Below are positions 5,036 to 64,000 of a stretch of 64,000 nucleotides of DNA, one piece after another (positions within the stretch are counted from its first letter, which is position 1; each line of letters opens with the position of its first letter). Made by a program: the position numbers and the translations under genes. Location of the stretch: positions 1 to 64,000 of the forward strand of contig WGMA01000016.1 of the NCBI GenBank assembly GCA_016125285.1, read 5' to 3'. Source of the DNA: Phycisphaera sp. Lineage in GTDB: Bacteria > Planctomycetota > Phycisphaerae > Phycisphaerales > Zrk34. Below the pieces are notes generated by a model. It saw only the letters and a program-made list of their open reading frames with translations, ran no database searches and was not told where the DNA came from.

Positions 5036-5057
5036 GCGACCCGCCGAAGCGGGTCGC
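5036..5057. terminator. Stem-loop between convergent genes (candidate bidirectional terminator)
   Basis: GCGACCCGC-cgaa-GCGGGTCGC forms a perfect 9-bp stem. It lies between the stop at 5031 (+) and the stop at 5064 (-). There is no clear U-tract. Confidence 0.5.
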
Positions 5058-5063
5058 ACCGGG

Positions 5064-6137: not shown

Positions 6138-6176
6138 AGTGTTTGCCTCTCGGGTCTAAGCGAGCGGTCGGGTGCC

Positions 6177-7829: not shown

Positions 7830-7954
7830 GACGGCGCCCTCCCGTCGCGACGACGCTCACGCCGAGCCGCGACCGGACCGGTCGGGGGTGTCCGCCGGCG
7901 ACCGTGACTCAAACGCATGGGTGTCGGGTCGTCCATCGTGGGTGCGCGTCCGTG

Positions 7955-14200: not shown

Positions 14201-15471
14201 GTGTCGTCGGGGTGGATGACGCTCTCGAAGGATCGCACGCGGTTCGACACGAAGTCGGACGCGGGGTAGCCGGTGATCTGCTCGATGCGGTCGCTGAGGT
14301 AACGCATCGTCCATTCTTCATCGAGGTCGCAGCGGTAGACCGCGCCGGGAATGTTGTCGACGAGCGTGCGGTACTGCCGCTCGGATCCGGTCAACGCCTC
14401 CTGCGCGACGCGGCGTTCGGCGGCTTCGCGTGTCGCCTCCGCGGCCTTCTGCTCGGCCTCGGTGCGCGCGGCGACGACCGCGGACTGCTGGCGGTGGAGG
14501 AACCCCGCGACGATCAGGCCGCCGATCGCCACGACCAGCCCCGCGACGATCACCTCGATCAGCGCCTCCCGCAGCGGCGCGTACGCCAGCGCCTCGGGCT
14601 GCTGGGCGACCACCGTCCACCGCTGCCGCGCGTAGGTCACGGGCATGAAGCTCGCCAGCACCGGCTCGTCGAGCCGCGGGTCGACGTAAGTGAGCGTGGC
14701 GCTCTTGCCGAGCGACGCCTGGATCTTCGGTTGCGTCGCGTACACGTCGTTCAGCAGCCGCGGGTCGCTCTCGTCGGGCGCGATCGCCGAGTGCCCGATC
14801 ACCAGGCCGCGCCGATCCAGCAGGATCACCTGCACGCCCTCGGCGATCGGCAGGTCAGACAGACGACGCGTGAACGTGTCGAGCCGGTACTGGTAGCACA
14901 GCACGCCGTGCACGCCCTCGTCGTCACGCACCGGCGTGGCGACGGTCACGACATAGGGCTGCGGCGCGGCGCGGCGCTGGTACGGCTCGGAGACGTACTG
15001 CGACCACTTCTCCGACACGCCGCGGAACCAGTCGCGATCGGAAAAGTCGACGTTGAGCGATTCGGGCGCCGCGGGGTAGTCGCACCACAGCACGCCCTTC
15101 TCGTCGGTCACGAACGCGCGGTCGACGTCGTCGTATGACTCGACGAGCGTCTGGAGCTTCGTGCGCAGCCCCGCGGCGTCGTGGCGGCTGACCATGTCAA
15201 TGAACTCGTCGGAGCCGGTGTAGATCGCCGCGTGCTGGCTGAGGTAGGACAGGTCGTTGGCGACGTACTGGCTCGTGAGCCGCGCCGCCGCCTCGCTCGC
15301 CGCCAGCGCCTGCGCGCGGATCGTGTGACTGACGATGACATACGCCGACCCGCACAACAGGAACACCGGCGCCATCAGCAGAACGACAAACACATAAAAC
15401 CACCGACGCGGACGGTTGTTGTCGCGTGTCTCGGCATCTCCACCACGTGCATTACCCTGCGTCTCTGACAA
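11221..15471 (-). CDS. Hybrid sensor histidine kinase (Cache-like sensor, multiple PAS, HisKA-HATPase, two receivers, HPt)
   Basis: 1416 aa. It has an N-terminal TM, a periplasmic region and a second TM, followed by several PAS/PAC modules. It also has the H-box [14 protein letters not shown], ATPase boxes DTGIGI / [13 protein letters not shown], receivers with [11 protein letters not shown] and [12 protein letters not shown], and a C-terminal HPt ([11 protein letters not shown]). Confidence 0.9.
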
Positions 15472-15675: not shown

Positions 15676-16710
15676 TCAGCCGTGAATCGCTTCGCCGCCG
15701 ACGTCAGCCAGCTCGTTGTATATCTCCGCGAACACGTCCTGGGCGTCGTTGAACGCCTCAACGATGTCGGGGTCAAAGTGCTTGCCCGACTCGGTATTGA
15801 TGATCTGGCACGCCCGGGCGTGATCGACCTCATCCTTGTACACACGCTTGGAGCGGATCACGTCGTACGCGTCGGCGAGGGCCACGATCCGAGCCGCCAG
15901 AGGAATGCCGGTCTTACGGTCGCGTCCGGCGCGTCCCTCCGGGTAGCCCGTGCCGTCGAACTTTTCATGATGCGACAACACCAGGTCCCGCGCCATCGAC
16001 AGGAACGACGCGGCGGGAAACCGTTTGATCGTCGTATCCAGCACCCGCGCCCCGCGCACGGTGTGCTTGGTCATGATCGCAAACTCCTCGGGTGTCAGCT
16101 GCCCGGGCTTGAACAGCACGCGGTCCGGCACCGTCACTTTGCCGATGTCGTAGAGCGGACAGACCTGCATCAGGATCAACCGGAACTCCGCCGTCACCTC
16201 GTTGATGTATCGCGGGTGCGTCGCCAACTCCTCGGCCAGCGTCATGCAGTACCGCCGCACGCGCTCGAGGTGGTTCGAGCCAGGCCAGTCACGCGCCCCG
16301 GCCAGCTTCGCCAGCGCGAACACCATCGCGTCCCACGACTCGGCCCGCGCGATCCGACGACCGGCGTTGAGCCGCAGCCGCAACTCGTCGTCGTTGAACG
16401 GCTTGATGATGTAATCGTCCGCCCCGGACTCCAGGCCAACCCGCACGTGGTCCGGATCGCGGTGACCCGTCAGCAGCACGATGTAGGTGTACGTGTGACT
16501 CTCCCGCGCGCGCACCGCCCGGCACAAGTCCACGCCGCTGACGCCCGGCATCTCCCAGTCCGCGAGGATCACGCGGAACGGGCGCGTGCGCAGAACCTCC
16601 AGCGCCTGGGCCCCGTGCTGCGCGACGGTGACCTTCCAGCCCCACTGCAGCAGCCTGGCCCGCAGCAGCGCGCGCGTCGTCGTGTCGTCATCAACGACCA
16701 GAATCTCCAC
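15676..16710 (-). CDS. Response regulator with HD-GYP domain (c-di-GMP phosphodiesterase, RpfG-like)
   Basis: The receiver is canonical (VVDDD, ILADWEMPGVSG, LLTGH, IIKP). It is followed by HD-GYP signatures (YDIGK, SHHEKFDGTGYPEG). Confidence 0.9.
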   Translation of the reverse strand: MEILVVDDDTTTRALLRARLLQWGWKVTVAQHGAQALEVLRTRPFRVILADWEMPGVSGVDLCRAVRARESHTYTYIVLLTGHRDPDHVRVGLESGADDYIIKPFNDDELRLRLNAGRRIARAESWDAMVFALAKLAGARDWPGSNHLERVRRYCMTLAEELATHPRYINEVTAEFRLILMQVCPLYDIGKVTVPDRVLFKPGQLTPEEFAIMTKHTVRGARVLDTTIKRFPAASFLSMARDLVLSHHEKFDGTGYPEGRAGRDRKTGIPLAARIVALADAYDVIRSKRVYKDEVDHARACQIINTESGKHFDPDIVEAFNDAQDVFAEIYNELADVGGEAIHG

Positions 16711-24482: not shown

Positions 24483-25979
24483 CTACTTGATCGACGCGAG
24501 CTTCGCGTCGAGCTTGGCTCGCATGTCGTCGAGGACCTGCTTGTGCTGCGGGTCCTCGGCGAGGTTGGTGAACTGGTGGGGGTCCTTTTCCATGTCGTAC
24601 AGTTCGACGCCGCTCTTGCCGTCGTTGTATACGATCAACGCCCAGCGGTCGGTGCGCAGCATGTGGTCGGCGTCGTTGCGCAGCGTGTAGACCGACTCGT
24701 GCACGGCGGGCGCGTGGTCCGGGTCATTGACGACGGACGCGAGGCTCTTGCCCTGCACGTGCGGCGGGATCGGCAGGCCGCAAAGCTCCGCGAGCGTGGG
24801 GTAGATGTCGATCTGTTGGCCGAGCGCGTCGGGCGCGCCGACGGGGCGACCGGGCGCGGCGACGATGAGCGGGATGTGCGTCGTCTCCTCGTGCAGGTGC
24901 ATCTTCTGCCACAGCTCGTGCTCGCCGAGCTGGTAGCCGTGGTCCGCGGTGAACACGACGATCGTGTTGTCGCGGAGGCCGAGCCGGTCGAGCGCGCCGA
25001 GGATCTTGCCGACCTGTGCGTCCATGTAAGACACCGCCGCGTAGTACGCTTCGAGCACCTTCTGCTTCTTGAGCGTCGTGTCGAGCCCGCGCTTCTGGCT
25101 GTCGTTGTGTCGCCCGGCTTCGGGGATGTCCGCTTCGTCGTTCTCCACGCTCAGCGCCAGCTTCATCTCCTCCGCGGGGTACGGCTCGAAGAACGACGCG
25201 GGCGCGACCAGCGGCACGTGCGGTCGCACCAGACCCACCGCGAGGAAGAACGGCTTGTCGTCCTTGCCGTGCTTCTCCAGCAGTTCGACCGCCTTCGCCG
25301 CGGTCTTGTGATCGGCCTGCTCCGTGCCATCGCTCGCGCCGCGCACGACGTAGAACGCGCTTCCATAACCCAGCGCGTAATGGATGTCGTGGTTCGGGTC
25401 GGGCTTGAGGCGATCGTGCGACAGGTGCTCGTGCACGCCCTCGGTCCACTGCTCGGGCGCCTGGCTGTTGAATCGTTCGGTCCACGACGCTTCGTGGTCG
25501 GGGCCGTCGACGCCCGCCGTGATGTCGCCCGGGACGCGCATGTGATAGATCTTGCTGACGCGCGCGGTGTAGTAGCCGTGGTCGCGGAACTGCTGCGCCA
25601 TGGTGGGGCGGTCGCCCATCCGCTTGGTGAAGCCGTTGGCCTGAGCGTTGGAGGTCACGCCGATCACCTGCGCGTACATGCCCGACATCAGCGCCGCACG
25701 CGACGGCCCGCACACGGGGTACTGGCAGTACACGCGTGTGAAGCGCGCCCCGCGCGCCGCCAGCGCGTCGAGGTTCGGCGTCTTGCACTGCGTGTTGCCG
25801 TAGCAGCCCAGCGATTGCGAGCCCAGGTCGTCGGAGATGATGAACAGCACGTTGGGCTTGCGGTCCGCGGCGCGCAGCGGCGTCACGCAGGCGAGCAGCG
25901 CGGCGGTGATGAGCACGGCGATCAGGCATGCAAGCGGGGCGGCATCGGAGCGGACGGATAAACGGTCGGGCGTCGTCAT
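24483..25979 (-). CDS. Cys-type sulfatase (formylglycine-dependent)
   Basis: ORF trimmed to ATG 25979. A signal peptide is followed by KPNVLFIISDDLG and the active-site motif CGPSRAALMSG. Confidence 0.9.
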   Translation of the reverse strand: MTTPDRLSVRSDAAPLACLIAVLITAALLACVTPLRAADRKPNVLFIISDDLGSQSLGCYGNTQCKTPNLDALAARGARFTRVYCQYPVCGPSRAALMSGMYAQVIGVTSNAQANGFTKRMGDRPTMAQQFRDHGYYTARVSKIYHMRVPGDITAGVDGPDHEASWTERFNSQAPEQWTEGVHEHLSHDRLKPDPNHDIHYALGYGSAFYVVRGASDGTEQADHKTAAKAVELLEKHGKDDKPFFLAVGLVRPHVPLVAPASFFEPYPAEEMKLALSVENDEADIPEAGRHNDSQKRGLDTTLKKQKVLEAYYAAVSYMDAQVGKILGALDRLGLRDNTIVVFTADHGYQLGEHELWQKMHLHEETTHIPLIVAAPGRPVGAPDALGQQIDIYPTLAELCGLPIPPHVQGKSLASVVNDPDHAPAVHESVYTLRNDADHMLRTDRWALIVYNDGKSGVELYDMEKDPHQFTNLAEDPQHKQVLDDMRAKLDAKLASIK

Positions 25980-26040
25980 GCGGCGATCCTTATGTGTTGG
26001 GTCTTGTAACAACGGCGCGACCGGAGGGCGAGATGGCGTG

Positions 26041-38651: not shown

Positions 38652-40037
38652 ATGAATCCACTACACCAACAACACGACCGCTTAATGACCGCGTGCGTCG
38701 TCGCGCTGCTGCTCGTCGTTGGCGCGTTCGCGTCCACCGTGGCTCGCGCCGACGACAAGCCCAACTTTGTCGTCATCCTCACCGACGACCAGGGCTACGC
38801 GGACCTGGGCTGCTTCGGGTCGCCGACGATCCACACGCCGAATATCGATCGCATGGCGCGCGGCGGCGTTCGGCTCACGAGCTTCTACGCGGCCGCGCCG
38901 ATCTGCACGCCCACCCGCGCCGCGCTGATGACCGGCTGTTACGCCACGCGTGTCGGCCTGCCCACGCCGCTGCACGTCTTCGACGAGATCGGTCTCAACC
39001 CGGCCGAGGTCACGCTGCCGGAGGTCCTCCAGCAGCGCGGCTACCGCACGGCGTGCGTCGGCAAGTGGCACCTGGGTCACGCGCCGGCGTTCTATCCGAC
39101 GCGCCACGGCTTCGACGTCTACTGGGGCACGCCGCTCGGCCACATGTTCGACCGCCCCGCGGTAGGTAAGGCGGTGGGCGACACGTCCGACCTGTTCCTC
39201 GACAACGAGACCGCGATCGCGTTCCCCGACCACGGCGATCTGACCGAACGGCTCACCGACGTCGCGGTGCGATTCATCGCCGAGAACAAGCGGCGGCCGT
39301 TCTTCCTGTTCGTGTCGCACCCGATGCCGCACGAGCCGCTGGCCGTGTCGCCGCGCTTCGCCGGCAAGAGCAAGGGCGGGCTGTACGGCGATGTGATCGA
39401 GTGCATCGACTGGAGCACGGGCCGCATCCTCGCCGCGCTCGAAGAGCACGGGCTGACGGAGCGCACCGTCGTGATCTTCACCTCCGACAACGGCCCGAAG
39501 AAGGGGCACGGGTCGGCCGCGCCGCTGCGCGGATTCAAGCATCAGCCCTACGAAGGCGGCGTCCGCGTGCCGTGCGTCGCGTACGCGCCGGGGCGCATCC
39601 CCGCCGGGCGAACCGTTGACGCCATCACGACGGTCATGGACCTCTATCCGACGCTCGCCGGTCTGGCCGGTGCGCCGGTGTCGCCGCAGCAGGTGCGCGA
39701 CGGCAGGGACATCTGGCCGCTGCTGACCGGAGAGTCGAACGCCGAGCCGGCGCACCGTGAGTTCTTCTACTTCGTCCGGCACGGCGTGCTCGCCGGCGTG
39801 CGCGACGAACGCTGGAAGCTGCTCGAGCAGAAAGGGCTGACGGAGCTATTCGACCTCGTGGCGGACATCAGCGAATCGAGCAACGTCGCCGGGCAACACC
39901 CCGAGATTGTCGCGCGGCTGACCGCGCGCATGCAGGCGTTTGAGAAGGACGTGACGGAGACCAAACGCCCGCCCGCCGGCGCGAAGGCGACGACGCACGT
40001 GAGCAACGGGCAGCAGCATCAGGAGCAACGGCAATGA
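38652..40037 (+). CDS. Cys-type sulfatase (arylsulfatase A family)
   Basis: A signal peptide is followed by KPNFVVILTDDQGYADLGCFG and the active site CTPTRAALMTG. It starts 1 nt after the upstream stop. Confidence 0.9.
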   Translation: MNPLHQQHDRLMTACVVALLLVVGAFASTVARADDKPNFVVILTDDQGYADLGCFGSPTIHTPNIDRMARGGVRLTSFYAAAPICTPTRAALMTGCYATRVGLPTPLHVFDEIGLNPAEVTLPEVLQQRGYRTACVGKWHLGHAPAFYPTRHGFDVYWGTPLGHMFDRPAVGKAVGDTSDLFLDNETAIAFPDHGDLTERLTDVAVRFIAENKRRPFFLFVSHPMPHEPLAVSPRFAGKSKGGLYGDVIECIDWSTGRILAALEEHGLTERTVVIFTSDNGPKKGHGSAAPLRGFKHQPYEGGVRVPCVAYAPGRIPAGRTVDAITTVMDLYPTLAGLAGAPVSPQQVRDGRDIWPLLTGESNAEPAHREFFYFVRHGVLAGVRDERWKLLEQKGLTELFDLVADISESSNVAGQHPEIVARLTARMQAFEKDVTETKRPPAGAKATTHVSNGQQHQEQRQ

Positions 40038-46828: not shown

Positions 46829-48145
46829 TCAGGTGAGGCTCAGCGGGCCGTCGGCGCAGTAGTCGGGGTTGCCGAAGGTGTTGATGCGGTGGCCGAACCC
46901 GTGGGCGAGCGCCATCAGCAGGCGGTTGTGGGCGACGCCCTTGAACTTCAGCGAGCGGCCCATCTTGAAGTCGAGCCCGCCGCCGACCAGCACGAACGGG
47001 ATGTTGTCCAGCGTGTGGCTGTTGCCCTTGCCCAGCTCGTTGGTCCAGACGATCAGCGTGTTGTCGAGCAGCGTACCCTCGCCGCCGGGCTCGGGCGTCT
47101 CGGCGAGCTTCTTGGTGAGGTACGCCAGCTGCTCGCAGTACCACTTGTTGATGCGTGTGAGCTTGTCCTTCGCGTCGTTGTTGGAGTCCGGCTCGTGCGA
47201 CAGCCCGTGGTGTCCCTCGTCGATGCCCAGCCAGCGCATCTTCGCCTGCCCGACCGAGCGGGTGAACTGCAGCGTGGCGATGCGGGCGAAGTCCGCGGCG
47301 AAGCTGTTGACCAGCAGGTCGATCTGCGTCTGGCTGATCTTCGGCATGTTGTCGTTGTCTTCGACGATGCCCGGCTCGAGCGTCGGCACGGCGTGGTCGT
47401 TGCCGCGCTGCTTCGACGCCTGCAGCTCGCGCTCCATCTCGCGCACCCACTGCGCGTGCTCCTCGAGCAGGCGGCGGTCGTCGGCGCTGACACGCGTGCG
47501 CAGCTTAGCGAGGTCTTCCTGCAGCTCGTCGAGCACGCTCTTGAGCGACTCCTGGTCCTTCACGCGGCCGTACATCTTGTCGAACATCTGGTACGGGTCG
47601 TCGATCGGCGCCAGCGGCTGGTTCGGCCCGGCGTACGACATGCGTGTCCAGGTGTCGGCGCGTTCGGGCACCATGACGCCGAACTCCAGCGAGCCGAAGC
47701 GCGTGCGCGTCGCGGCGTTCTTCTGCAGCTGGTTCTTGATCTCCTGGTCGATGGAGATGCCGCTGGACCAACCGGCGGGCGTGTGCGAGCCGCCCTGGAT
47801 GTTGCCGGGGAACAGCTCGATGCCGGTCAGCAGGCAGCCGATGCCGCGCATGTGGTTGTCGCCGTCGCCGCGCACCTTGTCGCACACGCCGTTGAGGAAC
47901 AGCGTGCGGTTCTTGAACGGTTCGAGCGGCGAGGTCGAGTCCTTGAGGTTGTAGTTTTCGCCTTCCTCGCCGGGCCAGAAGTTCTCGGGGATCACGCCGT
48001 TGGGGCTGAACATGACGATCAGCCGCTTCTTGCGCTGCGTGGTCTGCGCGAAGCCGAGGCTGGGCATGTTGAGCAGGAACGGCAGGGCGGCGGCGCTGAG
48101 GCCGAGCTCCTGCATGAACTGTCGTCGTGTCTGTGGCTTGCCCAT
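46829..48145 (-). CDS. DUF1552 family protein (Tat-type leader)
   Basis: [54 protein letters not shown] and IPFVLVGGG are present. It lacks the GGWDTH signature that I would expect of DUF1501. Confidence 0.7.
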
Positions 48146-48166
48146 GGCGCTACTCCTTGCCCTTCC

Positions 48167-50572
48167 TCAGTTCGATTTCGCCTCGGCCTTCGGTCGGTCG
48201 GGTGCGGTGGTCGCGATGGTCACCGCGGCGTTGACGATCAGGTCGCGGATGTTGTAGCCGTGCGCCGCGAAGTCGCGACGCAGCTGCTCGGCCTTGTCCT
48301 GACCGTAGGCCATCATCGACTGCTTGGCCAGGTGATGGAACAGCTGCATGACGAACGCGTCGTGCGTCTCTTCGCTCTCGGCCAGGAAGCTGGCCAGGTC
48401 GTACGCGTCGTTGAAGTTGCGGACCTTGCCGGTCGGCAGCTCGTACGCGCCGCGCGCGTCGATCGGCTTGCCGAACTCCTTGTCGCGGAACCGGCCCACG
48501 GCGTCGAACTGCTCGAGCGTGAAGCCCAGCGCGTTGATCATCCCGTGGCACGCCTGGCACGCCTTCGGCTCGGTCTGCAGCGTCACGCGCTGACGCGTGG
48601 TCATGCCCGGGTGCAGGTCCGGCGCGAGCGGCGCGACGGCCTTCGGCGGCGGACGCAGCGCCCGGCCCAGCACGCTCCGCACGATGAACACGCCGCGGTG
48701 GATCGGCGACGTGGCGTCCGGGTACGCGAACCGCGCCAGCACGTACGGGTGCGTCAGCACGCCCACGCGCTTCGGCGTCGTCGCGGCGACCTTCTCGAAC
48801 GGCGCGTCCTTCGGCAGGTTCACGCCGTAGTACGCGCCGAGACGACCGTTGACGTACATCGCGTCGGACGTCAGCAGCTGGCGGAAGTCGCCGCTGCCGT
48901 TCCACACCACGTCGTCGAGGAACAGGTCCAGCGACGTCCGCAGGTCCGAGGTGACCGCGGCGTCGAAGCCCTTGAACTGTTCCTTGTCCTTGGCCATGTC
49001 CGGCACCTGCTCGATGTCGAGCCAGTAGTGCATGAACTGGCGGACCTTCGCGTGGCAGCGCGGGTCGTCGAGCATGCGCTGCGCCTGCCGGGCGACCTGG
49101 TCGGGCTTGGCGAGCTGGCCCTTCGCCGCCGCGTCGAGCAGCTGCCGATCGGGCAGCGAATCCCACAACGCGAACGACAGCCGCGACGCCTGCGCGTACG
49201 CGTCGTCCTCGTCGCCGCCGAGGTTGTGGTACAGGAACCGCGGTGACTCCATCGTCAGCATCACCACGCGTTTCAGGCCGAGCTTGATGTCGTCGGCGCC
49301 CTCGAACTGCTTGTCGACGTAGAGGCGACGCTCGAAGTCGGTCAGCGGGCGGCGGAAGGCGCGCTCGACGAACGTCGCGGCGAACGCGCGGACCTTCTCG
49401 TCGCGCTTGTCGTCCTTGATGCGCGTGTTCGACAGCTCGTACATGTGCCCCACGACGTAGTCGGCGACCTCGATCGCCGCGCCCGTCGTCGCGTCCGCCC
49501 ACGCCTTGGACACCGACGACCCGCGCTCGTAGCCGACGCTGCGATCGTCCGGCGGGAACGGCGTGTTCAGCACGCAGACCTCCGTCGCGCTCGTCGGCGA
49601 CAGCACCCGCGCGGGCACGACCTCCACCTCGCGGTGCGGCGGCCGCCACCACAGCTCCACGAAGCTGTGCTCGGGCAGCTTGCTCTTGTGCTCCTTCTCG
49701 TCGCCCACGCCCTGGCTGTGACACGAGAACTCCACCGCCAGCGGGTACACCTGCCCGGCGATCAGGAAGATCGTGCCGCGGTACTCGATCTGGTTGCCGG
49801 ACTTCACCCACGCGTCGATGAACGCGTCCTTGGTCTCGGAGAACTCGTTATCGTCGCGGTTGCCGCGGCCGTCCTGGTTCAGCCAGAGGCGCACGGCGTG
49901 ATCGCTCTTGAGGATGAACTCGTAGTTGCCGGTCTCCGGCGCGACCAGCGCGCCGCTCCAACGGGCGCTGAAGCCCTTGGGATCGAACCTGTCGTACAGC
50001 GGGTTGGACTTGTCGAAGTGCGCCAGCACGGACGGCTCGATGCGCTCTTCGAGGCGGTCACGCCCCATCGAGCGGCCCTTGAAGAACTCGGCGCGCAGGC
50101 CGTCACGCTTGTCGAGGCTGACGTTGCGGCGGAACGAGCCGATCAGGTCGGCCACGACGTTGCGGTGCTGCGTGACGGTCAGCCGCGACAGCTCGATCCG
50201 CGGCGGGCGGTGACGGGCCTGGGCGATCGGCGAGTAGAACGCGTCGTAGATGTAACGCGACACCGCCTCGGCGTCCTTGCCGACGCACTGCTCGGGCTTG
50301 TCGTCCGGCATCGATTTGGTGACGTAGTTGGTCAGCTGGGGGACGGTCTTGTCGCCGACGAGCGGCTTGGAGTACTCGCCCTTCACGCCGCCGCCGGTCT
50401 TGCCGTGGCACGACGCGCACCGCTTCATGTAGATGCTTTCGCCGGGCTCCTCGGCGCGGCCGGTGGCCGTCGCCAGCAGCGCCAACACGACCACGCCCGC
50501 GACGAAGACCGCGGTGTGCCCTGGATGACGCGTGCCCAACCCAAAGTGAAACTTCCGCTTCGGGGTCATCAT
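48167..50572 (-). CDS. DUF1592/DUF1588/DUF1585-type planctomycete cytochrome-c domain protein (partner of DUF1552)
   Basis: ORF trimmed to ATG 50572. It has the N-terminal heme motif CASCHG. It has a DUF1588-like segment VGVLTHPYVLARFAYPDATSPIHRGVFIVRSVLG. It has a DUF1585-like segment CQACHGMINALGFTLEQFDAVGRFRDKE. Confidence 0.75.
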   Translation of the reverse strand: MMTPKRKFHFGLGTRHPGHTAVFVAGVVVLALLATATGRAEEPGESIYMKRCASCHGKTGGGVKGEYSKPLVGDKTVPQLTNYVTKSMPDDKPEQCVGKDAEAVSRYIYDAFYSPIAQARHRPPRIELSRLTVTQHRNVVADLIGSFRRNVSLDKRDGLRAEFFKGRSMGRDRLEERIEPSVLAHFDKSNPLYDRFDPKGFSARWSGALVAPETGNYEFILKSDHAVRLWLNQDGRGNRDDNEFSETKDAFIDAWVKSGNQIEYRGTIFLIAGQVYPLAVEFSCHSQGVGDEKEHKSKLPEHSFVELWWRPPHREVEVVPARVLSPTSATEVCVLNTPFPPDDRSVGYERGSSVSKAWADATTGAAIEVADYVVGHMYELSNTRIKDDKRDEKVRAFAATFVERAFRRPLTDFERRLYVDKQFEGADDIKLGLKRVVMLTMESPRFLYHNLGGDEDDAYAQASRLSFALWDSLPDRQLLDAAAKGQLAKPDQVARQAQRMLDDPRCHAKVRQFMHYWLDIEQVPDMAKDKEQFKGFDAAVTSDLRTSLDLFLDDVVWNGSGDFRQLLTSDAMYVNGRLGAYYGVNLPKDAPFEKVAATTPKRVGVLTHPYVLARFAYPDATSPIHRGVFIVRSVLGRALRPPPKAVAPLAPDLHPGMTTRQRVTLQTEPKACQACHGMINALGFTLEQFDAVGRFRDKEFGKPIDARGAYELPTGKVRNFNDAYDLASFLAESEETHDAFVMQLFHHLAKQSMMAYGQDKAEQLRRDFAAHGYNIRDLIVNAAVTIATTAPDRPKAEAKSN

Positions 50573-50874
50573 GGCGGAATTCAATGCCGCGAGAACGCGA
50601 AAGTGAAGCGCCGGCAGAATTTTGTAGAGCGATTGAGACAAATGCGTGTGCCCGTGGAGGTTCGTGTCGAGCGACGCGGCGCGTCGCTCTATCGATCTAT
50701 TGGCCCGAACGCGCGGATTGTTACGCGCCTGGCGGCGGTCGGGGACTGATTGATTCGTGCAGTGCTTTGATTCGATCGGAGCTTGGTTCGGCGAGGTTCT
50801 TGCCCCTACAATGCGGCCACGATCGCTCACGTGGGCACGTGGGTGGGCACACATACACGTCCAATTCAGATGGG

Positions 50875-55129: not shown

Positions 55130-56794
55130 ATGATGACGATTCGACAATCCGCGTTCTGCGCCGGAGTGATGTTCGTTGCGATGCTGGCGCTGTTCGTCGC
55201 CGTTTGCCATCCCCAACCGGCGCACGCGGCGGCGGCGGCGCCCGGCAAGCGCCCGAACGTCGTGTTCATCCTCGCCGATGACATGGGCTACTCGGACCTG
55301 GGCTGCTACGGCGGCGAGATCGAGACGCCGAACCTCGACGCGCTGGCGGCGGACGGGCTGCGCTTCACGCAGTTCTACAACACCGCACGCTGCTGGCCTT
55401 CGCGTGCGGCGCTGATGACCGGGTATTACGCGCAGCAGGTGCACCGCGACGGGCTGCCGGGCTTGGGCGGCGGCGGTGGGGGCAGGCGTCAGGAGTGGGC
55501 GCGGCTGCTGCCGGACTTCCTTGCGCCGCTCGGCTACCGCAGCTATCACAGCGGCAAGTGGCACATCGACGGCAAGGTGCTCGACGCGGGGTTCGACCAC
55601 TCGCTCGACGTGCGCAATCACGGCGACAACTTCACGTGCAAGGGCAACCTGGTCGACGACAAGCCCGTCACGCCGCCGGCCGACGAGTCGGGCTATTACT
55701 CGACGACGGCGATCGTCCAGCACGCGATCGACTGCCTGAAGGATCACGCCGCGCACTACGCCGGCCGGCCGTTCTTCAGCTACGTCGCGTTCGTCGCGCC
55801 GCACTTCCCGCTGCAGGCCCCGCAGGACGACATCGCCCGCTACGCCGGCAAGTACGACGCGGGCTGGGACGTGATGCGCGAGCGGCGTTTCGCGCGGCAG
55901 AAGGAGCTCGGCGTCGTCAACACCACGCTGTCGAAGCTCGAGCCGGACGTCGGCCCGCCGTACTACTTCGCCGACGCGTTCGAGAAGCTCGGCCCCGGCG
56001 AGGTCCGGTACCCGGTGCCTTGGGACCAGCTGACCGACGAGCAGAAGAAGTTCCAGTCGACGAAGATGTCGATCCACGCGGCGATGGTGTACCGCATCGA
56101 TCAGGAGGTCGGGCGGCTCGTCGCGCAGCTCAAGGCGATGGGGCAGTTCGACAACACGCTGATCTTCTTCGCGTCGGACAACGGCGCCAGCGCGGAGATC
56201 ATGGTGCGGGCGGGCGGCCACGATCCAAGCGCCCCGCCGGGCAGCGCCAAGACGTTCCTGTGCCTGGGGCCGGGCTTTTCGAGCGCGTGCAACACGCCGC
56301 ACCGGCGGCACAAGACCTGGGTGCACGAAGGCGGGATCAGCACGCCGCTGATCGTGCACTGGCCGGCGGGCATCAAGGCGCACGGCGAGCTGCGGCACAC
56401 GCCGGGCCACTTCGTCGACATCATGCCGACCGTGCTCGAGGTCGCCGGCGGTGAGAAGCCGAAGCGGTGGAAGGGCGAGGCGCTGCCGCCGGCGCCCGGT
56501 CACAGCCTGGTCGCGGCGTTCGCCGATGACGTGACGATCGCGCGCGACCACCTGTGGTGGCTGCACGAGGGCAACCGCGCGATCCGCGTGGGTGACTGGA
56601 AGCTCGTGGCGGCGAAGGGCGATCCGTGGGAGCTGTACGACATGACGTGCGATCGCGCCGAGTCACACAACCTCGCGGCCCAGAAGCCCGAACTCGTCGA
56701 GCGGCTCGCAGCCGAGTGGGACGCGCAGACCAAACAGATCAGCGAGTTGGCGAAGCAGACCGCGGACCTCGGCGGCAGGGCGAAAAAGAAATAA
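55130..56794 (+). CDS. Cys-type arylsulfatase
   Basis: A signal peptide is followed by RPNVVFILADDMGYSDLGCYG and the active site CWPSRAALMTG. SDNGAS is also present. Confidence 0.9.
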   Translation: MMTIRQSAFCAGVMFVAMLALFVAVCHPQPAHAAAAAPGKRPNVVFILADDMGYSDLGCYGGEIETPNLDALAADGLRFTQFYNTARCWPSRAALMTGYYAQQVHRDGLPGLGGGGGGRRQEWARLLPDFLAPLGYRSYHSGKWHIDGKVLDAGFDHSLDVRNHGDNFTCKGNLVDDKPVTPPADESGYYSTTAIVQHAIDCLKDHAAHYAGRPFFSYVAFVAPHFPLQAPQDDIARYAGKYDAGWDVMRERRFARQKELGVVNTTLSKLEPDVGPPYYFADAFEKLGPGEVRYPVPWDQLTDEQKKFQSTKMSIHAAMVYRIDQEVGRLVAQLKAMGQFDNTLIFFASDNGASAEIMVRAGGHDPSAPPGSAKTFLCLGPGFSSACNTPHRRHKTWVHEGGISTPLIVHWPAGIKAHGELRHTPGHFVDIMPTVLEVAGGEKPKRWKGEALPPAPGHSLVAAFADDVTIARDHLWWLHEGNRAIRVGDWKLVAAKGDPWELYDMTCDRAESHNLAAQKPELVERLAAEWDAQTKQISELAKQTADLGGRAKKK

Positions 56795-57617: not shown

Positions 57618-57621
57618 AATG

Positions 57622-57694
57622 TGGGCAAGGGCGGACTTGAACCGCCGACACCGGCATTTTCAGTGCCGTGCTCTACCAGCTGAGCTACTTGCCC
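57622..57694 (-). tRNA. tRNA-Phe (anticodon GAA)
   Basis: The 73-nt cloverleaf was folded by hand: acceptor GGGCAAG/CTTGCCC, D arm GCTC-AGCTGGTA-GAGC, anticodon arm CGGCA-CTGAAAA-TGCCG, variable loop GTGTC, T arm GGCGG-TTCAAGT-CCGCC and discriminator A. CCA is not encoded. Confidence 0.95.
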
Positions 57695-58366: not shown

Positions 58367-58411
58367 ACACAAAACCCGACGCCGGCACACGCGAGATGCG
58401 CCGGCGTCGGG
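58367..58411 (-). terminator. Rho-independent terminator of the 58439-59302 gene
   Basis: On the minus strand: CCCGACGCCGGC-(13 nt)-GCCGGCGTCGGG, a perfect 12-bp stem, followed by TTTTGTGT. Confidence 0.75.
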
Positions 58412-58438
58412 TGGAACGTTGTGGGGCGGGCGAGCGGT

Positions 58439-59302
58439 TTACGGCTGCGGCCAGGCGAGGCGGACGGTGAAGCCGGACGGCAGCTGCTCGTCGGGGTTGT
58501 CGATGGTGAACACGCAGCGGAAGGTCTGGCTGGCGGGCTCGATCTGGGGCTCGACGCTCTTGAGCTTGCCGATGACGGTCTTGCGTGTGCGGTTGACGGG
58601 CGGGCCGGCGTAGAAGGTGTACTCCTTGCCGATCTGCAGCTCGCCGTAGAGCTGCACGGGCAGGAACATCTGCGCCTCGAGCGGGTTGAGCGCGATCATG
58701 TAGATGATCACGTCGTCGCTGCGGTTGTTGGAGACGGTGGCGCCCTCTTCGACGCCGAGCTGGAGGATGCGTCCGTCGAACGGCGCCTTGATCTTGTAGC
58801 GATCGAGTCGGAGCTGCTCGAGGTCGAGCGACGACTTGGCGCGGTCGAGGTCGATCTGGGCTCCGGTCTGCTGGAGCTCGCGCTGCCGGAGCTCGAAGTC
58901 ACCGATCGCCTTCTTCTCGAGCAGCCGCTTGGCCTGGTCCACCTGCAGCTTGGCCTCCTCGAGCAGGGCGGCGCGGCGGTCGACCTCGAGCCGGGCGGCC
59001 TCGACCTGCACGATCTGCAGCTCGTCGTCCATCACCGCCAGCACGTCGCCTTCCTTGACCGAGTCGTCCTCATCGACGTTGATCTTCTTGATCAGGCCTT
59101 CGAGCGGCGCCATGAGCGACACCTTCTTCGACGGCTTGACGAGTCCGGTAAGTCTTTCGTCGTCGGGGGTGATCGGCTTGAGCTGCAGGGGCTGCTCGAT
59201 GTCGCCCGCCGCGGCGCCCTGACTCTGGCCGGTCGAAACCGACGCGACGGCCAGCGCGGCGAGCACGGCGGTGAAGCAGAATAACCTTGACAAAGTTTTC
59301 AT
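58439..59302 (-). CDS. Periplasmic membrane-fusion protein (HlyD / RND-adaptor family)
   Basis: ORF trimmed to ATG 59302 (ATG 59305 is an alternative), following AGGAGG. It has a signal peptide. The biotinyl-lipoyl-like hairpin includes GLIKKINVDEDDSVKEGDVLAVMDD and IKAPFDGRIL. A coiled coil and a beta-barrel follow. Confidence 0.8.
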   Translation of the reverse strand: MKTLSRLFCFTAVLAALAVASVSTGQSQGAAAGDIEQPLQLKPITPDDERLTGLVKPSKKVSLMAPLEGLIKKINVDEDDSVKEGDVLAVMDDELQIVQVEAARLEVDRRAALLEEAKLQVDQAKRLLEKKAIGDFELRQRELQQTGAQIDLDRAKSSLDLEQLRLDRYKIKAPFDGRILQLGVEEGATVSNNRSDDVIIYMIALNPLEAQMFLPVQLYGELQIGKEYTFYAGPPVNRTRKTVIGKLKSVEPQIEPASQTFRCVFTIDNPDEQLPSGFTVRLAWPQP

Positions 59303-59406
59303 CATTCCTCCTAATGCCTCATCTTGCGCTTGGATTCGGCGTTCGTCGCCAACTATTGTATCCAAGTCGCCGGTGGAGTCAGGGTAGCCAGAGAGATGAG
59401 TTTCGC

Positions 59407-61335
59407 ATGAGTCAGACGGCCGATCAAGTTCAGCGGCTCGTTCAGCAGGCGTTGGGCGAGTTCGAGCAGCAGATGTCCAGCGACGAGAAGCCCTCGTCGG
59501 TGCTGACCAAGATGATGGAAACGCTGCTGCGCACGACGCAGGGCGTGGGCGCCGTGGCGTGGATGTTCAAGGACCCCGAGCACCCGGAGTTCACGTCGGT
59601 GGCGCAGGTGGGCCCGGCGTCGCCGCTGGTGTTCGACCCCGAGGGCCGCATCCAGACGCCCGTGCGTGAGGTGCTCCAGCAGAGCGCGTCGCAGGGCAAG
59701 CCGATCATCGTCGCGCCCGATCAGCCGGACTTCCAGAAGACGGACCTGCACAACACGTGTCAGTTCATCGTGCCGATCGACGCGATGGGCCGCACGCTGG
59801 GCGTGGTGCAGCTGATCCACACCAAGGACCTGGACCCGAAGGTCTACCGCCAGTTCGTGATGTTCACGCAGCAGGCGTCGCGTGCGGCGGGGCTGTACCT
59901 GGCGCGGCGTCAGAGCAACGTGCTCCGCGAAGACCTCGACGCGGCGACGCGCATGCTCAAGATGTCGCACCAGCTGGTCAAGGTCTCCACGCCCGAGGAC
60001 CTGATCCACGAGCTGGCGAACCTGGCGCGCAACGCGCTGAAGGCGCAGCGCATGTCGGCGGTGGGGTACTGGCGGAACAAGACGGAGGTCGCGTTCAGCG
60101 ACACGATCGAGGTCAACCGCAAGGCGGTGGTCGTGCGGACCGTCGAGCTGCTCGCCGAGGTCGTGCGCGACCGGCGCGTGCCGATGGTGTTCCTCCGCGA
60201 CCAGGAGCTCGAGCCGGAGGAGCAGTCGCTGCTGCCGCTGCTGGAGGATCTGTACAGCCACGGCGCGGCCGAGGCGATCGTGCTCACGCCGCTGATGGTC
60301 GACAAGAAGGTCGTCGGCGTGCTGATCGGCGAGTACGACGACGCGGAAGAGGCGTCGGCGCGATCGGCGACGCAGAGCGAGGTCGCCGGTCAGGCGGCGC
60401 CGCTGCTGAACCAGGTCGTCGAGTGGCGCTACCGCCCGCTGCGTCGCACGAGCGACCTGCTGGCGTCGATCCGCCGCAGGCCGATGTCGTCGATGGGCAA
60501 GGTGGCGGTGGCGGTCGCGATCGTCTGGTTCGTGATCCACGTGCTGTTCTTCGTGCCGATGCCGGTGTCGGTGTTCGGCGAGGCGCGTCTGGAGCCGGCC
60601 AAGCTGGCGCTGATCACGGCGCCCGAGGCCGGGCGGATCAGCGACGTGAAGATCGTCAACGGTGAGGCGGTGGAGCGCGGCCAGGTGCTGGCGACGATGG
60701 ACGACATCGACCTGAAGCTGGAGCTGGCGGAGATCGTGCAGAAGATCAGCGGCGAGCGGGTGGAGCTGGAGGCGTCGCGTCGCGAGGGCGACCGGCCGAA
60801 GCTTCAGGCCTCCCAGCTCCGCATCGAGCAGTATCAGCTGCAGAAGCAGTCGCTGGAGCGCAAGATCGAACGCGCGCAGGTGCGCACGCCGATCGGCGGC
60901 GTGGTGCTCGACGACCGCCCGCAGCGGCTGATCGACCGCACCGTCGCGCAGGGCGACGAGCTGATGAGCGTGGCGGACCTCACGGAGTTCGAGCTGGTGA
61001 TCGACCTGCACGAGGAAGACCTCGCGGCGGTGGAGGAGGCGATCCGCGACGGCAAGGAGGTCGAGGTGTCGTTCCTCAGCCGCCCCTGGCCGGACCTCGT
61101 CCAGCACGCGAAGGTCACGAACATCGAGCAGCTGTCGCCGACGAGCCGCCCCGACGAATACCAGAAGCAGCACGTGTTCCGCATCATCGTGCCGATCGAG
61201 CTGGAGGGCCTGAGCCCGCAGCTGGTGCTGGCGAACCCGACCGGCCGCGCCAAGCTGATCACGCCGCCGCGCAGCATCGCGTACGGCGTGTTCGGCGGCG
61301 TGTGGCGATTCCTGAAGATGACCCTGTTCTTCTAA
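59407..61335 (+). CDS. Tandem GAF domains, one TM and a HlyD-type membrane-fusion domain in one protein
   Basis: ORF trimmed to ATG 59407. Two GAF-like regions are present (..QFIVPIDAMGRTLGVVQLIH and ..LTPLMVDKKVVGVLIGEY). The TM is VAVAVAIVWFVIHVLFFV. The HlyD hairpin includes ITAPEAGRISDVKIVNGEAVERGQVLATMDD and VRTPIGGVVL. Confidence 0.8.
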   Translation: MSQTADQVQRLVQQALGEFEQQMSSDEKPSSVLTKMMETLLRTTQGVGAVAWMFKDPEHPEFTSVAQVGPASPLVFDPEGRIQTPVREVLQQSASQGKPIIVAPDQPDFQKTDLHNTCQFIVPIDAMGRTLGVVQLIHTKDLDPKVYRQFVMFTQQASRAAGLYLARRQSNVLREDLDAATRMLKMSHQLVKVSTPEDLIHELANLARNALKAQRMSAVGYWRNKTEVAFSDTIEVNRKAVVVRTVELLAEVVRDRRVPMVFLRDQELEPEEQSLLPLLEDLYSHGAAEAIVLTPLMVDKKVVGVLIGEYDDAEEASARSATQSEVAGQAAPLLNQVVEWRYRPLRRTSDLLASIRRRPMSSMGKVAVAVAIVWFVIHVLFFVPMPVSVFGEARLEPAKLALITAPEAGRISDVKIVNGEAVERGQVLATMDDIDLKLELAEIVQKISGERVELEASRREGDRPKLQASQLRIEQYQLQKQSLERKIERAQVRTPIGGVVLDDRPQRLIDRTVAQGDELMSVADLTEFELVIDLHEEDLAAVEEAIRDGKEVEVSFLSRPWPDLVQHAKVTNIEQLSPTSRPDEYQKQHVFRIIVPIELEGLSPQLVLANPTGRAKLITPPRSIAYGVFGGVWRFLKMTLFF

Positions 61336-61370: not shown

Positions 61371-63620
61371 ATGGCGCACCTCCCGTTCCAACCCGAACCG
61401 CCTCAGCCGCCGCAGCACGGCGTGGACGACGAGCCGTTCCAGCGCGACAACTCCGGCCAGGCCGAGCAGGCGATGTCCGAGCCGCTGCCGGCGGTGCGCA
61501 AGGACCTGGAGATCAGCCCGCAGCTGTACCTCGGCAAGATCGTGTACGTCGTGAAGGACCCGGTGAGCCTGACGTATTTCCGCCTCAAGCCCGCCGAGCA
61601 CTTCGTGCTCAAGAACCTCGACGGCCAGGCCAGCGCCAACGACATGGCGCGGAAGCTGGCGCGTCACTTCCCCGAGCAGCCCGCCGACGCCGAGCAGGTG
61701 ATGGTCTTCATCCGCATGCTGCAGGGCTCGGGCCTGCTGCTGGGCCGCGGCGAGTCGCACGGCGAGTGGATCCGCGAGAACCGCGACGAGCGCCGCCGCA
61801 AGAACGTCATGGCGCAGTGGTTCAACTTCCTGTTCATCAAGATCCCCATCATGGACCCGGACCACCTGCTCGACGACATCTACAGCTTCGTGCGGTTCTT
61901 CATGAACCGAAAGACGATGTGGCTGGCGGCGATCTTCCTGGTCTCGTCGCTCGTGGCCATCGGGCTCCACCTCGACCGCGTCGGCGCGCTGAAGTTCCCC
62001 GTGCTCGGGTGGATCAACGCCCTGATGCTCACCGGCACGTTCCTCACGGTGAAGGTCATCCACGAGTTCGGGCACGGCCTGGCCGCCAAACACCGCGGCC
62101 TCGAAGTGCACGAGATCGGCGTGATGATGATGGTGTTCTTCCCTGTGTTCTACGTCGACGTGTCCGACGCGTGGATGGTCACGCGGCGATCCGACCGCCT
62201 GTGGATCAACGCCGGCGGCGTGTACATCGAGTGCCTCTTCGCCTCCATCGCCGCGTGGGTGTTCCTCAGCACCGACCCCGGCGTCGTCAACCAGATCGCG
62301 TTCAACACGATGCTCGCCGCGTCGGTCACCACCGTGCTGTTCAACGCCAACCCGCTGCTGCGGTACGACGGCTACTACTTCCTGATGGACTGGCTGGAGA
62401 TCCCCAACCTCCGCTCCAAGGCCGGCAACTACTGCGGCTACCTCGCCAAGCGCTACCTGCTGGGCATGGACGAGGAGGTCCCGCCGCACGAGGCGTCGAC
62501 CCACCCGATCTTCATGCCGCTGTACTCCGCGGCCGCGGGCGTCTACCGCTGGGTCGTGGTCTTCGGCATCATCGCCGTCGTCTGGCACCTGCTCGATCCG
62601 TACGGCCTCGAGGTGATCAGCGCCATCATGGGCATCGTCGCCGTCGTCACCATGCTGCTGCTGCCGCTCGGACAGATGCTCTCGTTCGTCTGGTCGCAGC
62701 AGAAGGCGCGCACCGGCAGGCAGGTCGCGATCAGCGTGCTCGGCGTCGTGGCGCTGTTCGGCGTCGCCGCCGGCATCCTCGCCATCCCCACCGATCAGAC
62801 CGTCAAGCACCCCGTCGTCGTCCTCGCCGTCGAGCGCCAGCCCGTGTTCGCCTTCGTGCCCGGACGCGTCGACGAGGTCCACGTCGACGACGGCCAGTAC
62901 GTCCACAAGGGCGACCCGCTGCTGACCCTCCGCAACCCGCCGCTCGTCGATCGCCTCGACCAGCTCGGCGTGTCGCTGCGGCTGACCCAGCTCCAGCTCG
63001 AATCCTCACGCATCGACGGCCGCATCGACGTCGTCGCGTCGCTCACCACGCAGATCAAGCACATCCGCGAGCAGATCGACGTGACCAACGAGAAGATCGC
63101 CGAGCTGGTCGTCCGCGCCCCGATCGACGGACGCATCCAGACCTACCGCCGCCTGCAGACCCTGCTGGGCATGATGGTCGACCGCGGCGACGAGATCGCC
63201 CTGGTCGTCGGCGACCAGCAACGCGAGGTCGACATGGTCCTGCCCGAGACCGACGCCTCGCTCGTCGAGGTCGACGACCGGGTCAACGTCCGCCTCTGGG
63301 GCTCGGCCGAGTTGGCCCGGGTCGGCCACGTCGAGCGGGTCGGATCGCAGATTCTCAAGTCCCTGCCCCACGAGGCCCTGTCCTCGCGGTTCAAGGGCGA
63401 AGTGGACACTGTGCCCACCAGTCAGTACAATTCCGCCCCCAGCACGCCGTCCGTGATCGCCACGATCACCATGGACCCGGGACAGGCGCCGCTGCCGCTC
63501 GACGGCAGCACCGGACGCGGCTCGATCATCGTGGAGGAGAAAGTGACCCTCGCCGCCCAGCTGTGGCGCAGGATCCGCCAGGTGATCAGTCCCGACTATC
63601 GCCTGTGGATGATGAAATAA
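61371..63620 (+). CDS. PqqD-like N-terminal domain, M50 (site-2 protease family) membrane metalloprotease and a HlyD-type membrane-fusion domain in one protein
   Basis: HEFGH lies at 62061-62075 and the second M50 motif NPLLRYDG at 62349-62372. The N-terminus reads YVVKDPVSLTYFRLKPAEHFVLKNLDGQASANDMARKL. The C-terminal hairpin includes GRVDEVHVDDGQYVHKGDPLLTL and VRAPIDGRIQ. Confidence 0.8.
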   Translation: MAHLPFQPEPPQPPQHGVDDEPFQRDNSGQAEQAMSEPLPAVRKDLEISPQLYLGKIVYVVKDPVSLTYFRLKPAEHFVLKNLDGQASANDMARKLARHFPEQPADAEQVMVFIRMLQGSGLLLGRGESHGEWIRENRDERRRKNVMAQWFNFLFIKIPIMDPDHLLDDIYSFVRFFMNRKTMWLAAIFLVSSLVAIGLHLDRVGALKFPVLGWINALMLTGTFLTVKVIHEFGHGLAAKHRGLEVHEIGVMMMVFFPVFYVDVSDAWMVTRRSDRLWINAGGVYIECLFASIAAWVFLSTDPGVVNQIAFNTMLAASVTTVLFNANPLLRYDGYYFLMDWLEIPNLRSKAGNYCGYLAKRYLLGMDEEVPPHEASTHPIFMPLYSAAAGVYRWVVVFGIIAVVWHLLDPYGLEVISAIMGIVAVVTMLLLPLGQMLSFVWSQQKARTGRQVAISVLGVVALFGVAAGILAIPTDQTVKHPVVVLAVERQPVFAFVPGRVDEVHVDDGQYVHKGDPLLTLRNPPLVDRLDQLGVSLRLTQLQLESSRIDGRIDVVASLTTQIKHIREQIDVTNEKIAELVVRAPIDGRIQTYRRLQTLLGMMVDRGDEIALVVGDQQREVDMVLPETDASLVEVDDRVNVRLWGSAELARVGHVERVGSQILKSLPHEALSSRFKGEVDTVPTSQYNSAPSTPSVIATITMDPGQAPLPLDGSTGRGSIIVEEKVTLAAQLWRRIRQVISPDYRLWMMK

Positions 63621-63685: not shown

Positions 63686-64000
63686 ATGGCTAAGGACAAG
63701 AACGACGACAAGACCACCCCGGAATCCGCCGAGCACGCCACCGCCGGTGCGGGCGACACCGTCAGCGCCCCCGCTGAGCAGACTCCCCCGCGCGGCGCCC
63801 AGCTCCGCCTCGACGAGTCCAACGTGCAGTGCTTCTACTCCTCGACGACCCGTCTCTCCGGTTCCGCCGAAGAGATCACCATCGACTTCGCCCAGGGCAT
63901 CCGCCCCGTCGGCCCCAACGCCGCCGTCCTGAAGATCGACGCCCGCGTCGTCATGTCCCCCTGGGGAGCCAAGCGCCTCGTCCAGGCCCTCGAGCAGACC
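63686..64000 (+). CDS. DUF3467 family protein (5' part; continues past the window end)
   Basis: This ORF is absent from the ORF track because there is no stop before the window edge. I translated it by hand from ATG 63686, which follows GAAGAAGGAAGG: MAKDKNDDKTTPES...LRLDESNVQCFYSSTTRLSGSAEEITIDFAQGIRPVGPNAAVLKIDARVVMSPWGAKRLVQALEQT. This fits my recollection of the DUF3467 pattern. Confidence 0.65.
   Translation, partial: MAKDKNDDKTTPESAEHATAGAGDTVSAPAEQTPPRGAQLRLDESNVQCFYSSTTRLSGSAEEITIDFAQGIRPVGPNAAVLKIDARVVMSPWGAKRLVQALEQT

Follow-up and report, generated by a model that had tools for sequence, protein, structure and literature searches.

A conserved locus in Planctomycetes, Verrucomicrobia and Proteobacteria was described by Kamneva, Poudel and Ward in 2015 (PLoS One 10:e0129066, PMC4452313). 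It comprises genes for a secondary SecA_DEAD protein and for Peptidase_M50/HlyD, HlyD/biotin_lipoyl and GAF/HlyD/biotin_lipoyl proteins, sometimes together with an outer-membrane protein of the OEP/TolC type, and genes for some components can lie at other genomic sites. The function of the locus was stated as unknown; SecA2 was proposed as its ATPase and the M50 protein as a possible membrane component, and a "regulatory and sensory role" was suggested for the GAF protein (PMC4452313). Here, we analyzed a 64-kb stretch of DNA from Phycisphaera sp. (contig WGMA01000016.1, positions 1 to 64,000; hereafter the window), which contains a gene for a protein with two GAF domains, a single transmembrane (TM) helix and a membrane fusion protein (MFP) domain, hereafter GAF-MFP, next to a gene for a fusion of an M50 metalloprotease with an MFP domain (M50-MFP). 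On balance, we lean towards GAF-MFP being the GAF-bearing adaptor subunit of a conserved multi-adaptor envelope machine that exports giant surface proteins.

The GAF + HlyD, M50 + HlyD and separate HlyD proteins of the 2015 locus are all present in the window, whereas the defining secondary SecA_DEAD gene was found neither there nor beside the closest relatives. Since both the GAF-MFP architecture and its partnership with M50-MFP were already described by comparative genomics in 2015 (PMC4452313), the novelty of the window locus is limited. An earlier sequence-only reading of this stretch had called the architecture unusual, a claim that gives way to that description, which includes the same sensory suggestion. 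The DUF3467 protein, the PqqD-like domain, the intact protease motifs and the giant LEPR-XLL neighbours go unmentioned in PMC4452313. From sequence comparisons, what appears to be new here is the membership of DUF3467, the invariant M50 motifs and the likeness of this domain to leader peptidases of ribosomally synthesized peptides with post-translational modifications (RiPPs), together with the giant, often LEPR-XLL, first gene and the optional terminal TolC gene of the alphaproteobacterial operons.

The GAF-MFP gene is listed as an open reading frame (ORF) at 59287..61335 on the + strand, opening with TTG. Judged from its relatives, its true start is the ATG at 59407, because 11 homologues (45-64% identity, each about 640 amino acids (aa) long) keep the N-terminus MSQTADQ. 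The gene limits of 59407-61335 in the sequence-only reading are exact, as is the gap of 35 nucleotides (nt) that it placed before the M50-MFP gene (ATG at 61371). A protein identical to GAF-MFP (P0001) occurs on a Logan contig. The gene and the parts of its product, as delimited with Pfam, homologues, AlphaFold2 (AF2) and Foldseek, are as follows.

59407..61335, + strand: GAF-GAF-TM-MFP protein, 642 aa
59491..59835, + strand: GAF1, compact, aa 29-143 (Pfam GAF stretch aa 31-160, AF2)
59836..59991, + strand: long helix linking both GAF domains, aa 144-195, like that of tandem-GAF dimers
59992..60426, + strand: GAF2, aa 196-340 (matches to solved GAF domains at profile positions ~173-346)
60427..60558, + strand: juxtamembrane RPLRRTS motif, aa 343-349, and single TM helix, aa 362-384
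60559..61275, + strand: periplasmic MFP domain, aa 385-623, with lipoyl domain, two-helix hairpin (aa 434-489) and beta-barrel
61276..61335, + strand: conserved C-terminal amphipathic helix, aa 624-642 (...VWRFLKMTLFF), and stop codon

Tandem cytoplasmic GAF domains, one TM helix and a complete MFP domain had been read from the sequence alone, and this anatomy is borne out by profile searches, structure prediction and hydropathy. Pfam GAF (PF01590) matches the protein in two stretches (E 9.3e-8, 33.1 bits against a cut-off of 22.4) and GAF_2 (PF13185) scores 30.2 bits (cut-off 28.6), while HlyD_D23 spans aa 387-573, HlyD_3 spans aa 492-581 and Biotin_lipoyl_2 matches as well. Both halves of an N-terminal 345-aa profile match solved GAF domains; a phmmer search of the PDB with the single N-terminal sequence gave no match. 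The N-terminal region also models as GAF: an AF2 model built from 12 sequences (mean predicted local distance difference test score, pLDDT, of 81, with domains mostly at 80-92) has, in order, an N-terminal helix, GAF1 (about aa 29-143), a connecting helix (144-191), GAF2 (about aa 196-340), the TM helix (362-382), the MFP domain (384-623) and a C-terminal helix (624-641). The predicted template modelling score (pTM) of this model is 0.39, so the placement of the domains relative to each other is unreliable and only the individual domains are trustworthy. Foldseek comparison of the model with the PDB returned MacA, MexA, EmrA and ZneB as well as the tandem GAF domains of PDE6, PDE5 and CyaB2, at E about 1e-10, and a hydropathy scan gave a single strong TM segment at aa 366-384. 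The GAF fold, an antiparallel sheet with flanking helices, occurs twice with a long helix between the copies, and the membrane anchor is followed by the lipoyl (barrel-sandwich) domain, alpha-hairpin and beta-barrel of an MFP.

GAF1 has modelled strands at aa 48-54, 62-68, 100-102, 117-126 and 129-139, and its W52 (94%) and P123 (91%) are conserved across the family. Among the polar residues of the cytoplasmic part, the best conserved lie in GAF2: N205, R208, R215, S231 and E309 (79-97%, n = 139 members). In the juxtamembrane motif, R343, P344, L345, R346 and S349 are invariant within the close subfamily. The C-terminal helix has low pLDDT in the AF2 model and keeps its ...LF ending throughout the diverse family alignment, A2.

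The GAF-MFP architecture is no chance match, as judged from how widely the sequences keep it. An exhaustive profile search covering 1.84 billion representatives returned 156 cluster representatives at E<=1e-30, most of them 620-720 aa long and matching profile positions 1-642 unbroken, and the complete architecture is found in at least 139 clusters (50% identity). The order GAF1-linker-GAF2-TM-MFP-C-terminal helix holds down to 18% identity with the window protein. Column conservation is about equal in the GAF regions (0.31-0.38) and the MFP part (0.39), and the best conserved region of the family is the C-terminal helix (mean 0.42). Orthologues do keep the GAF domains, as 139 of 164 retrieved sequences measure 600-730 aa; a GAF-less clade was considered for the short matches (277-307 aa) and rejected, since most of them have V as their first residue or start only at the TM helix, and they resemble truncated gene calls. 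With alignment A2, a word-indexed profile search gave nearly all generic MFPs and GAF kinases, and a search for related genome loci with another alignment, A1, gave only two. One metagenomic member, P0109 (1019 aa), carries three extra, near-identical canonical GAF domains before the family GAF region (Pfam GAF, 212 bits in four stretches).

The other genes of the module in the window are given below.

58439..59305, - strand: short MFP, 288 aa (TIGR01730 RND_mfp, 158.5 bits, cut-off 94.9), divergent from GAF-MFP
59306..59406, no strand: divergent intergenic region of ~100 nt between the short MFP and GAF-MFP genes (sequence read)
61371..63620, + strand: PqqD-like/M50 metalloprotease/TM/MFP fusion, 749 aa (Pfam, NCBIfam)
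63686..64000, + strand: DUF3467 gene, cut by the window end (Pfam PF11950, E 4.3e-11)

The sequence-only reading had taken the GAF-MFP and M50-MFP genes to be co-transcribed, and an operon link is supported both by the short spacer and by synteny. The two genes are neighbours in all 8 of the metagenomic or planctomycete lineages examined, as they are on all seven alphaproteobacterial replicons checked for both. In most lineages examined the pair is accompanied by the short MFP and DUF3467. Orthologues of the short MFP with 42-46% identity occupy the same position in four loci (L001, L002, L008 and L009), and DUF3467 lies beside the module in six (L001, L002, L004, L006, L008 and L011) and on 6 alphaproteobacterial replicons. 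Judged by genomic placement, the module thus has another conserved member in DUF3467, and this holds across phyla.

A gene for a resistance-nodulation-division (RND), ATP-binding cassette (ABC) or major facilitator superfamily (MFS) transporter is not conserved near the module in any of roughly 16 loci. It is very improbable that GAF-MFP is an ordinary efflux-pump adaptor for an RND, ABC or MFS pump encoded elsewhere. Such a role would fit the generic likeness of its MFP fold to MacA, MexA and EmrA, and the orthologue of ZRK34 is named "efflux RND transporter periplasmic adaptor subunit" by NCBI. However, GAF-MFP reaches just 46.7 bits against TIGR01730 (cut-off 94.9), its invariant partner is the M50-MFP fusion, and both its GAF-GAF region and its C-terminal helix are family-specific. 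The NCBI name is misleading for the GAF-MFP family.

What the module might serve is suggested by the alphaproteobacterial operons, which include L019 (NZ_CP049813.1 64187-82651), L021, L024 and L014/L017. These operons sit on plasmids or chromids, their genes overlap or nearly abut, and the order is a giant protein, DUF3467, GAF-MFP, PqqD-M50-MFP, SecA_DEAD, short MFP and sometimes TolC. In Pontibrevibacter nitratireducens, for example, a LEPR-XLL gene of 31.8 kb is followed by DUF3467, a GAF-MFP of 618 aa, a PqqD-M50-MFP of 713 aa, a SecA_DEAD protein of 661 aa with a preprotein cross-linking domain, a short MFP and a hypothetical protein, with overlapping stop and start codons. Mesorhizobium, Pseudohalocynthiibacter, Pseudosulfitobacter and Alisedimentitalea carry variants of the same plan, and a TolC gene is additionally present in the Methylosinus and Thalassospira operons. 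The giant genes (LEPR-XLL/LamG/Ig-like) measure 12-39 kb, and LEPR-XLL is found on that of Pontibrevibacter, Thalassospira and Pseudosulfitobacter (NCBI names; NF012209 LEPR-8K, 32.6 bits). Homology between these adaptors and those of planctomycetes extends to the cytoplasmic part, as the 618-aa protein aligns with the planctomycete GAF-GAF region at an hhalign probability of 96.4% (E 1e-9) and Pfam GAF matches 6 of the 7 proteobacterial GAF-MFPs tested. The SecA_DEAD gene is misnamed at NCBI ("prepilin peptidase", "DEAD/DEAH box helicase"); by Pfam its product is SecA_DEAD + PP_bind + P-loop_SecA.

Large neighbours are also found outside the Alphaproteobacteria. At locus L001 (1-7922), where GAF-MFP is 51% identical to the window protein, the module has a 6,371-aa Peptidase_M10 neighbour whose N-terminus carries an Arg-rich stretch and then LETLEPRLLL, and at L010 both large neighbours have LEDRYLL or LEPRCLL behind an Arg-rich stretch. 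On one metagenomic contig (L006, 1-7510), a gene for an 11,254-aa protein lies directly beside the module. The distant planctomycete-type locus L004 encodes a 654-aa SecA_DEAD paralogue (5040..7004) and a 74-aa ORF (7102..7326) just upstream of GAF-MFP, with a gene for a BBP7 outer-membrane protein nearby.

The invariant partner, M50-MFP, matches Peptidase_M50 (29.6 bits, cut-off 27.2), HlyD_3 and HlyD_D23, and reaches 21.6 bits against PqqD, under the cut-off of 23.4. Its catalytic motifs, HEFGH (aa 231) and NANPLLRYDG (aa 325) in the window protein, are kept in 8 of 8 lineages in the forms HEFGH and N(G/A)NPL(L/I)R(Y/F)DG, so the protease is presumably active. The MFP parts of M50-MFP and GAF-MFP are paralogous (26% identical), and their hairpin regions align with one single-residue gap, at the distal end; this nearly ungapped match is consistent with co-assembly of the two proteins.

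By NCBIfam, the M50 part comes closest to two RiPP proteases, daptide and YydH/LiaK, which are leader peptidases, and daptide_HExxH scores 169.7 bits over aa 66-430, under its cut-off of 300. One could read this as the mark of a unit that matures and exports a small peptide of RiPP or bacteriocin-like type, in which the PqqD-like/M50 part would strip the leader from a small precursor, the MFPs would guide it outwards and the giant neighbours would be incidental, the more so as NCBI names some orthologues "PqqD family peptide modification chaperone" and as MFPs participate in microcin and bacteriocin export. We regard this as unlikely: in about 16 loci no conserved gene for a small precursor or a modification enzyme lies beside the module, the only conserved small gene belongs to the widespread DUF3467 family, and the giant gene comes first in tightly coupled operons. 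Small ORFs do adjoin the gene for the short MFP, one of 174 aa in the window and others of 146 and 180 aa in relatives; they were considered as substrates and rejected as mutually unrelated. On enterobacterial plasmids (E. coli and Citrobacter, H43-H50) and on those of Azospirillum (H27-H41), proteins named "HlyD family efflux transporter periplasmic adaptor subunit" show about 30-33% identity over about 220-290 aa to the M50 part of PqqD-M50-MFP, and by this likeness M50-adaptor fusions may also occur in settings unrelated to the module.

An M50 protease beside a single-pass membrane protein raises a further alternative, regulated intramembrane proteolysis, in which M50-MFP would cut the TM helix of GAF-MFP and free GAF-GAF as a cytoplasmic signal. 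GAF-MFP has the type II (N-in) single-pass topology of site-2 protease substrates, RPLRRTS is invariant in the subfamily, prolines stand at the periplasmic end of the TM helix (P384, 83%), and the paralogous MFP domains could join both proteins around an invariant M50 active site. Yet a freed GAF-GAF would have no output domain, the PqqD-like leader-binding domain on the protease points to a peptide-leader substrate, and operons with giant cargo, SecA2 and TolC point to export. Conservation that is highest in the MFP domain and the C-terminal helix would also be unexpected for a mere tether. We consider this explanation quite improbable.

The anatomy of GAF-MFP, the conservation of its architecture, the invariant adjacency to M50-MFP with intact motifs and the homology to the proteobacterial loci are established directly. 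In the export reading that we favour, the core of the machine would consist of the short secreted MFP, GAF-GAF-TM-MFP, the PqqD-like/M50-protease/MFP fusion and the small DUF3467 protein, and in many genomes genes for a secondary SecA ATPase in truncated form and for an outer-membrane protein of the TolC type lie alongside. The paralogous MFP domains would co-assemble into one periplasm-spanning adaptor ring over the M50 membrane domain, and this assembly would dock to a TolC-type channel. Its cargo, exported or processed, would be very large surface proteins with an N-terminal Arg-rich LEPR-XLL leader, which the PqqD-like domain would recognize and the M50 site would remove, with SecA2 supplying energy. 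The tandem GAF, as the sole large cytoplasmic part of the adaptors, would be a control or docking module analogous to the cytoplasmic N-terminus of HlyD, and may bind a small-molecule signal or else SecA2, DUF3467 or cargo.

More tentatively, and with our confidence short of even, the module could be a distinct, unnamed envelope-spanning secretion system for giant LEPR-XLL proteins in which the tandem GAF acts as a cytoplasmic gate. Its parts would be a truncated SecA motor, an M50 leader peptidase and inner-membrane platform equipped with a RiPP recognition element, three different MFPs, TolC and a DUF3467 factor, and through the GAF gate the assembly or opening of the channel would respond to a metabolite, a second messenger or the engagement of cargo.

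The sequence-only reading had placed ligand sensing on the adaptor and suggested comparison with GAF domains that bind cyclic nucleotides (cNMP), haem or bilins. Tandem GAF domains do sit on the adaptor; across the 139 members none of the sequence signatures of those three types is present. The NKFDE cNMP motif was found in 0 of 139 members by regular-expression search, and the GAF region of the same members has no Cys/His column above 51%, as would mark bilin or haem GAF domains. Ligand sensing or gating is a role that we infer only, and docking or oligomerization could equally be the role of these domains. They may instead be structural modules for adaptor dimerization and for docking of SecA2, DUF3467 or the cargo leader, the machine being otherwise unchanged; this is a serious contender, which we hold to be somewhat less than an even prospect. 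Beyond the missing NKFDE and Cys/His signatures, it fits the location of most conserved residues at positions that are typically structural in GAF domains (W in beta1, the DR motif), the compactness of GAF1 (~115 aa) and the classic use of tandem GAF domains as dimerization modules, as in the matched PDE2A. On the other side, the three added canonical GAF domains of P0109 look like extra sensing capacity, and N205, R208, R215, S231 and E309 of GAF2, kept at 79-97% among sequences of 18-25% identity, fit a binding site too and form a candidate site.

Several observations weigh against the export machine as we have drawn it. Within the 64-kb window, which stops 0.3 kb beyond the module, no SecA_DEAD gene was found by tblastn with a SecA-like paralogue or by Pfam scans of ORFs, nor a TolC-like gene or a protein with a LEPR motif. 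In ZRK34 and a TARA contig, the nearest relatives for which long flanks are available, SecA_DEAD, TolC and LEPR genes are likewise missing within 10 kb, so that membership of the window locus in the full system rests on the homology of its core genes. The first 120 aa, as annotated, of the giant Alisedimentitalea neighbour contain no LEPR motif. Planctomycetes may often have LEPR-like N-termini, so that adjacency is a weaker argument there and the strong cases are the proteobacterial ones. The GAF domains of GAF-MFP bear no known ligand signature, the inter-domain geometry of the AF2 model is unreliable, as its pTM indicates, and the model leaves the passage of a polypeptide across the inner membrane unexplained. 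No experimental follow-up to the 2015 description was found in the literature, and searches on DUF3467 and on LEPR-XLL turned up no relevant work.

Planctomycetes, marine Alphaproteobacteria and related groups commonly have giant repetitive surface proteins (6,000-13,000 aa), and the conserved operon is a concrete, genetically testable candidate exporter for those with an N-terminal LEPR-XLL. If the GAF domains do gate the machine, a cytoplasmic signal input would be built into a periplasmic adaptor.

Of the remaining module genes, the short MFP matches Pfam HlyD_3, Biotin_lipoyl_2 and HlyD_D23 and has a signal-peptide-like N-terminal hydrophobic segment (aa 5-23); a strong terminator-like hairpin lies downstream of its gene at 58412..58374. 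The divergent intergenic region presumably holds the promoters of both flanking genes, and it contains a weak sigma-70-like match on the minus strand at 59382..59355. DUF3467 is 135 aa at full length in P0202, a 100% identical protein; it has no sequence match in the PDB, and an AF2 model from 3 sequences was poor, with a pLDDT of 48.8. A SecB-like nature of DUF3467 was considered and is unsupported (hhalign probability 0.2% against an approximate E. coli SecB query). None of the four module proteins matched a defence system in a PADLOC scan.

Elsewhere in the window, three consecutive genes for T2SSE-type secretion/pilus ATPases (357, 550 and 721 aa) lie at 5064..10120 on the - strand. A 1416-aa hybrid sensor kinase (11221..15471, - strand) combines dCache, several PAS, HisKA/HATPase, two receiver domains and Hpt, and is adjoined by a gene for a receiver/HD-GYP-like (HD_5) response regulator (15676..16710, - strand). 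A planctomycete-specific pair at 46829..50854 (- strand) encodes a DUF1552 (HXXSHH) protein and a PSD/PSCyt/PA14/cytochrome c protein, and sulfatase genes at 24483..26012, 38652..40037 and 55130..56794 fit a polysaccharide-degrading Phycisphaerae lifestyle. A tRNA-Phe (GAA) gene at 57621..57694 (- strand) stands between the neighbourhood of the module and an upstream membrane-protein gene.

Among well-studied systems, HlyD of the E. coli haemolysin type I system resembles GAF-MFP in being an inner-membrane MFP that has an N-terminal extension in the cytoplasm, a single TM helix and the lipoyl, hairpin and barrel elements, and secreted proteins of very large size and repetitive build are associated with both. 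In HlyD, the cytoplasmic part has a role in substrate-triggered recruitment of TolC; unlike that of GAF-MFP, it measures only about 60 aa and has no GAF fold. The partner of HlyD is an ABC transporter and its substrate signal is C-terminal, whereas GAF-MFP is partnered by M50-MFP, with SecA2 in other loci, and the candidate signal is N-terminal. GAF-MFP scores 28.3 bits against TIGR01843 (cut-off 208.65), and with no ABC gene at the module and an N-terminal candidate cargo signal (LEPR-XLL) the locus departs from canonical type I secretion.

The tandem GAF domains of PDE2/5/6 and CyaB2 share about 12% identity with GAF-MFP, which lacks NKFDE, and their output is a catalytic domain, whereas that of GAF-MFP is a TM helix and a periplasmic adaptor. 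The RiPP M50 proteases (daptide, NF041824; YydH/LiaK, NF058609) share with M50-MFP a PqqD-like N-terminal domain followed by a multi-TM HExxH protease; M50-MFP differs from them in its fusion to an MFP, its sub-cut-off score and the absence of RiPP precursor or modification genes nearby. Finally, TriABC-OpmH of Pseudomonas aeruginosa is a two-adaptor efflux pump with an RND transporter that needs more than one distinct MFP. It has neither GAF domain nor protease and, like the module proposed here, uses several MFPs in one assembly.

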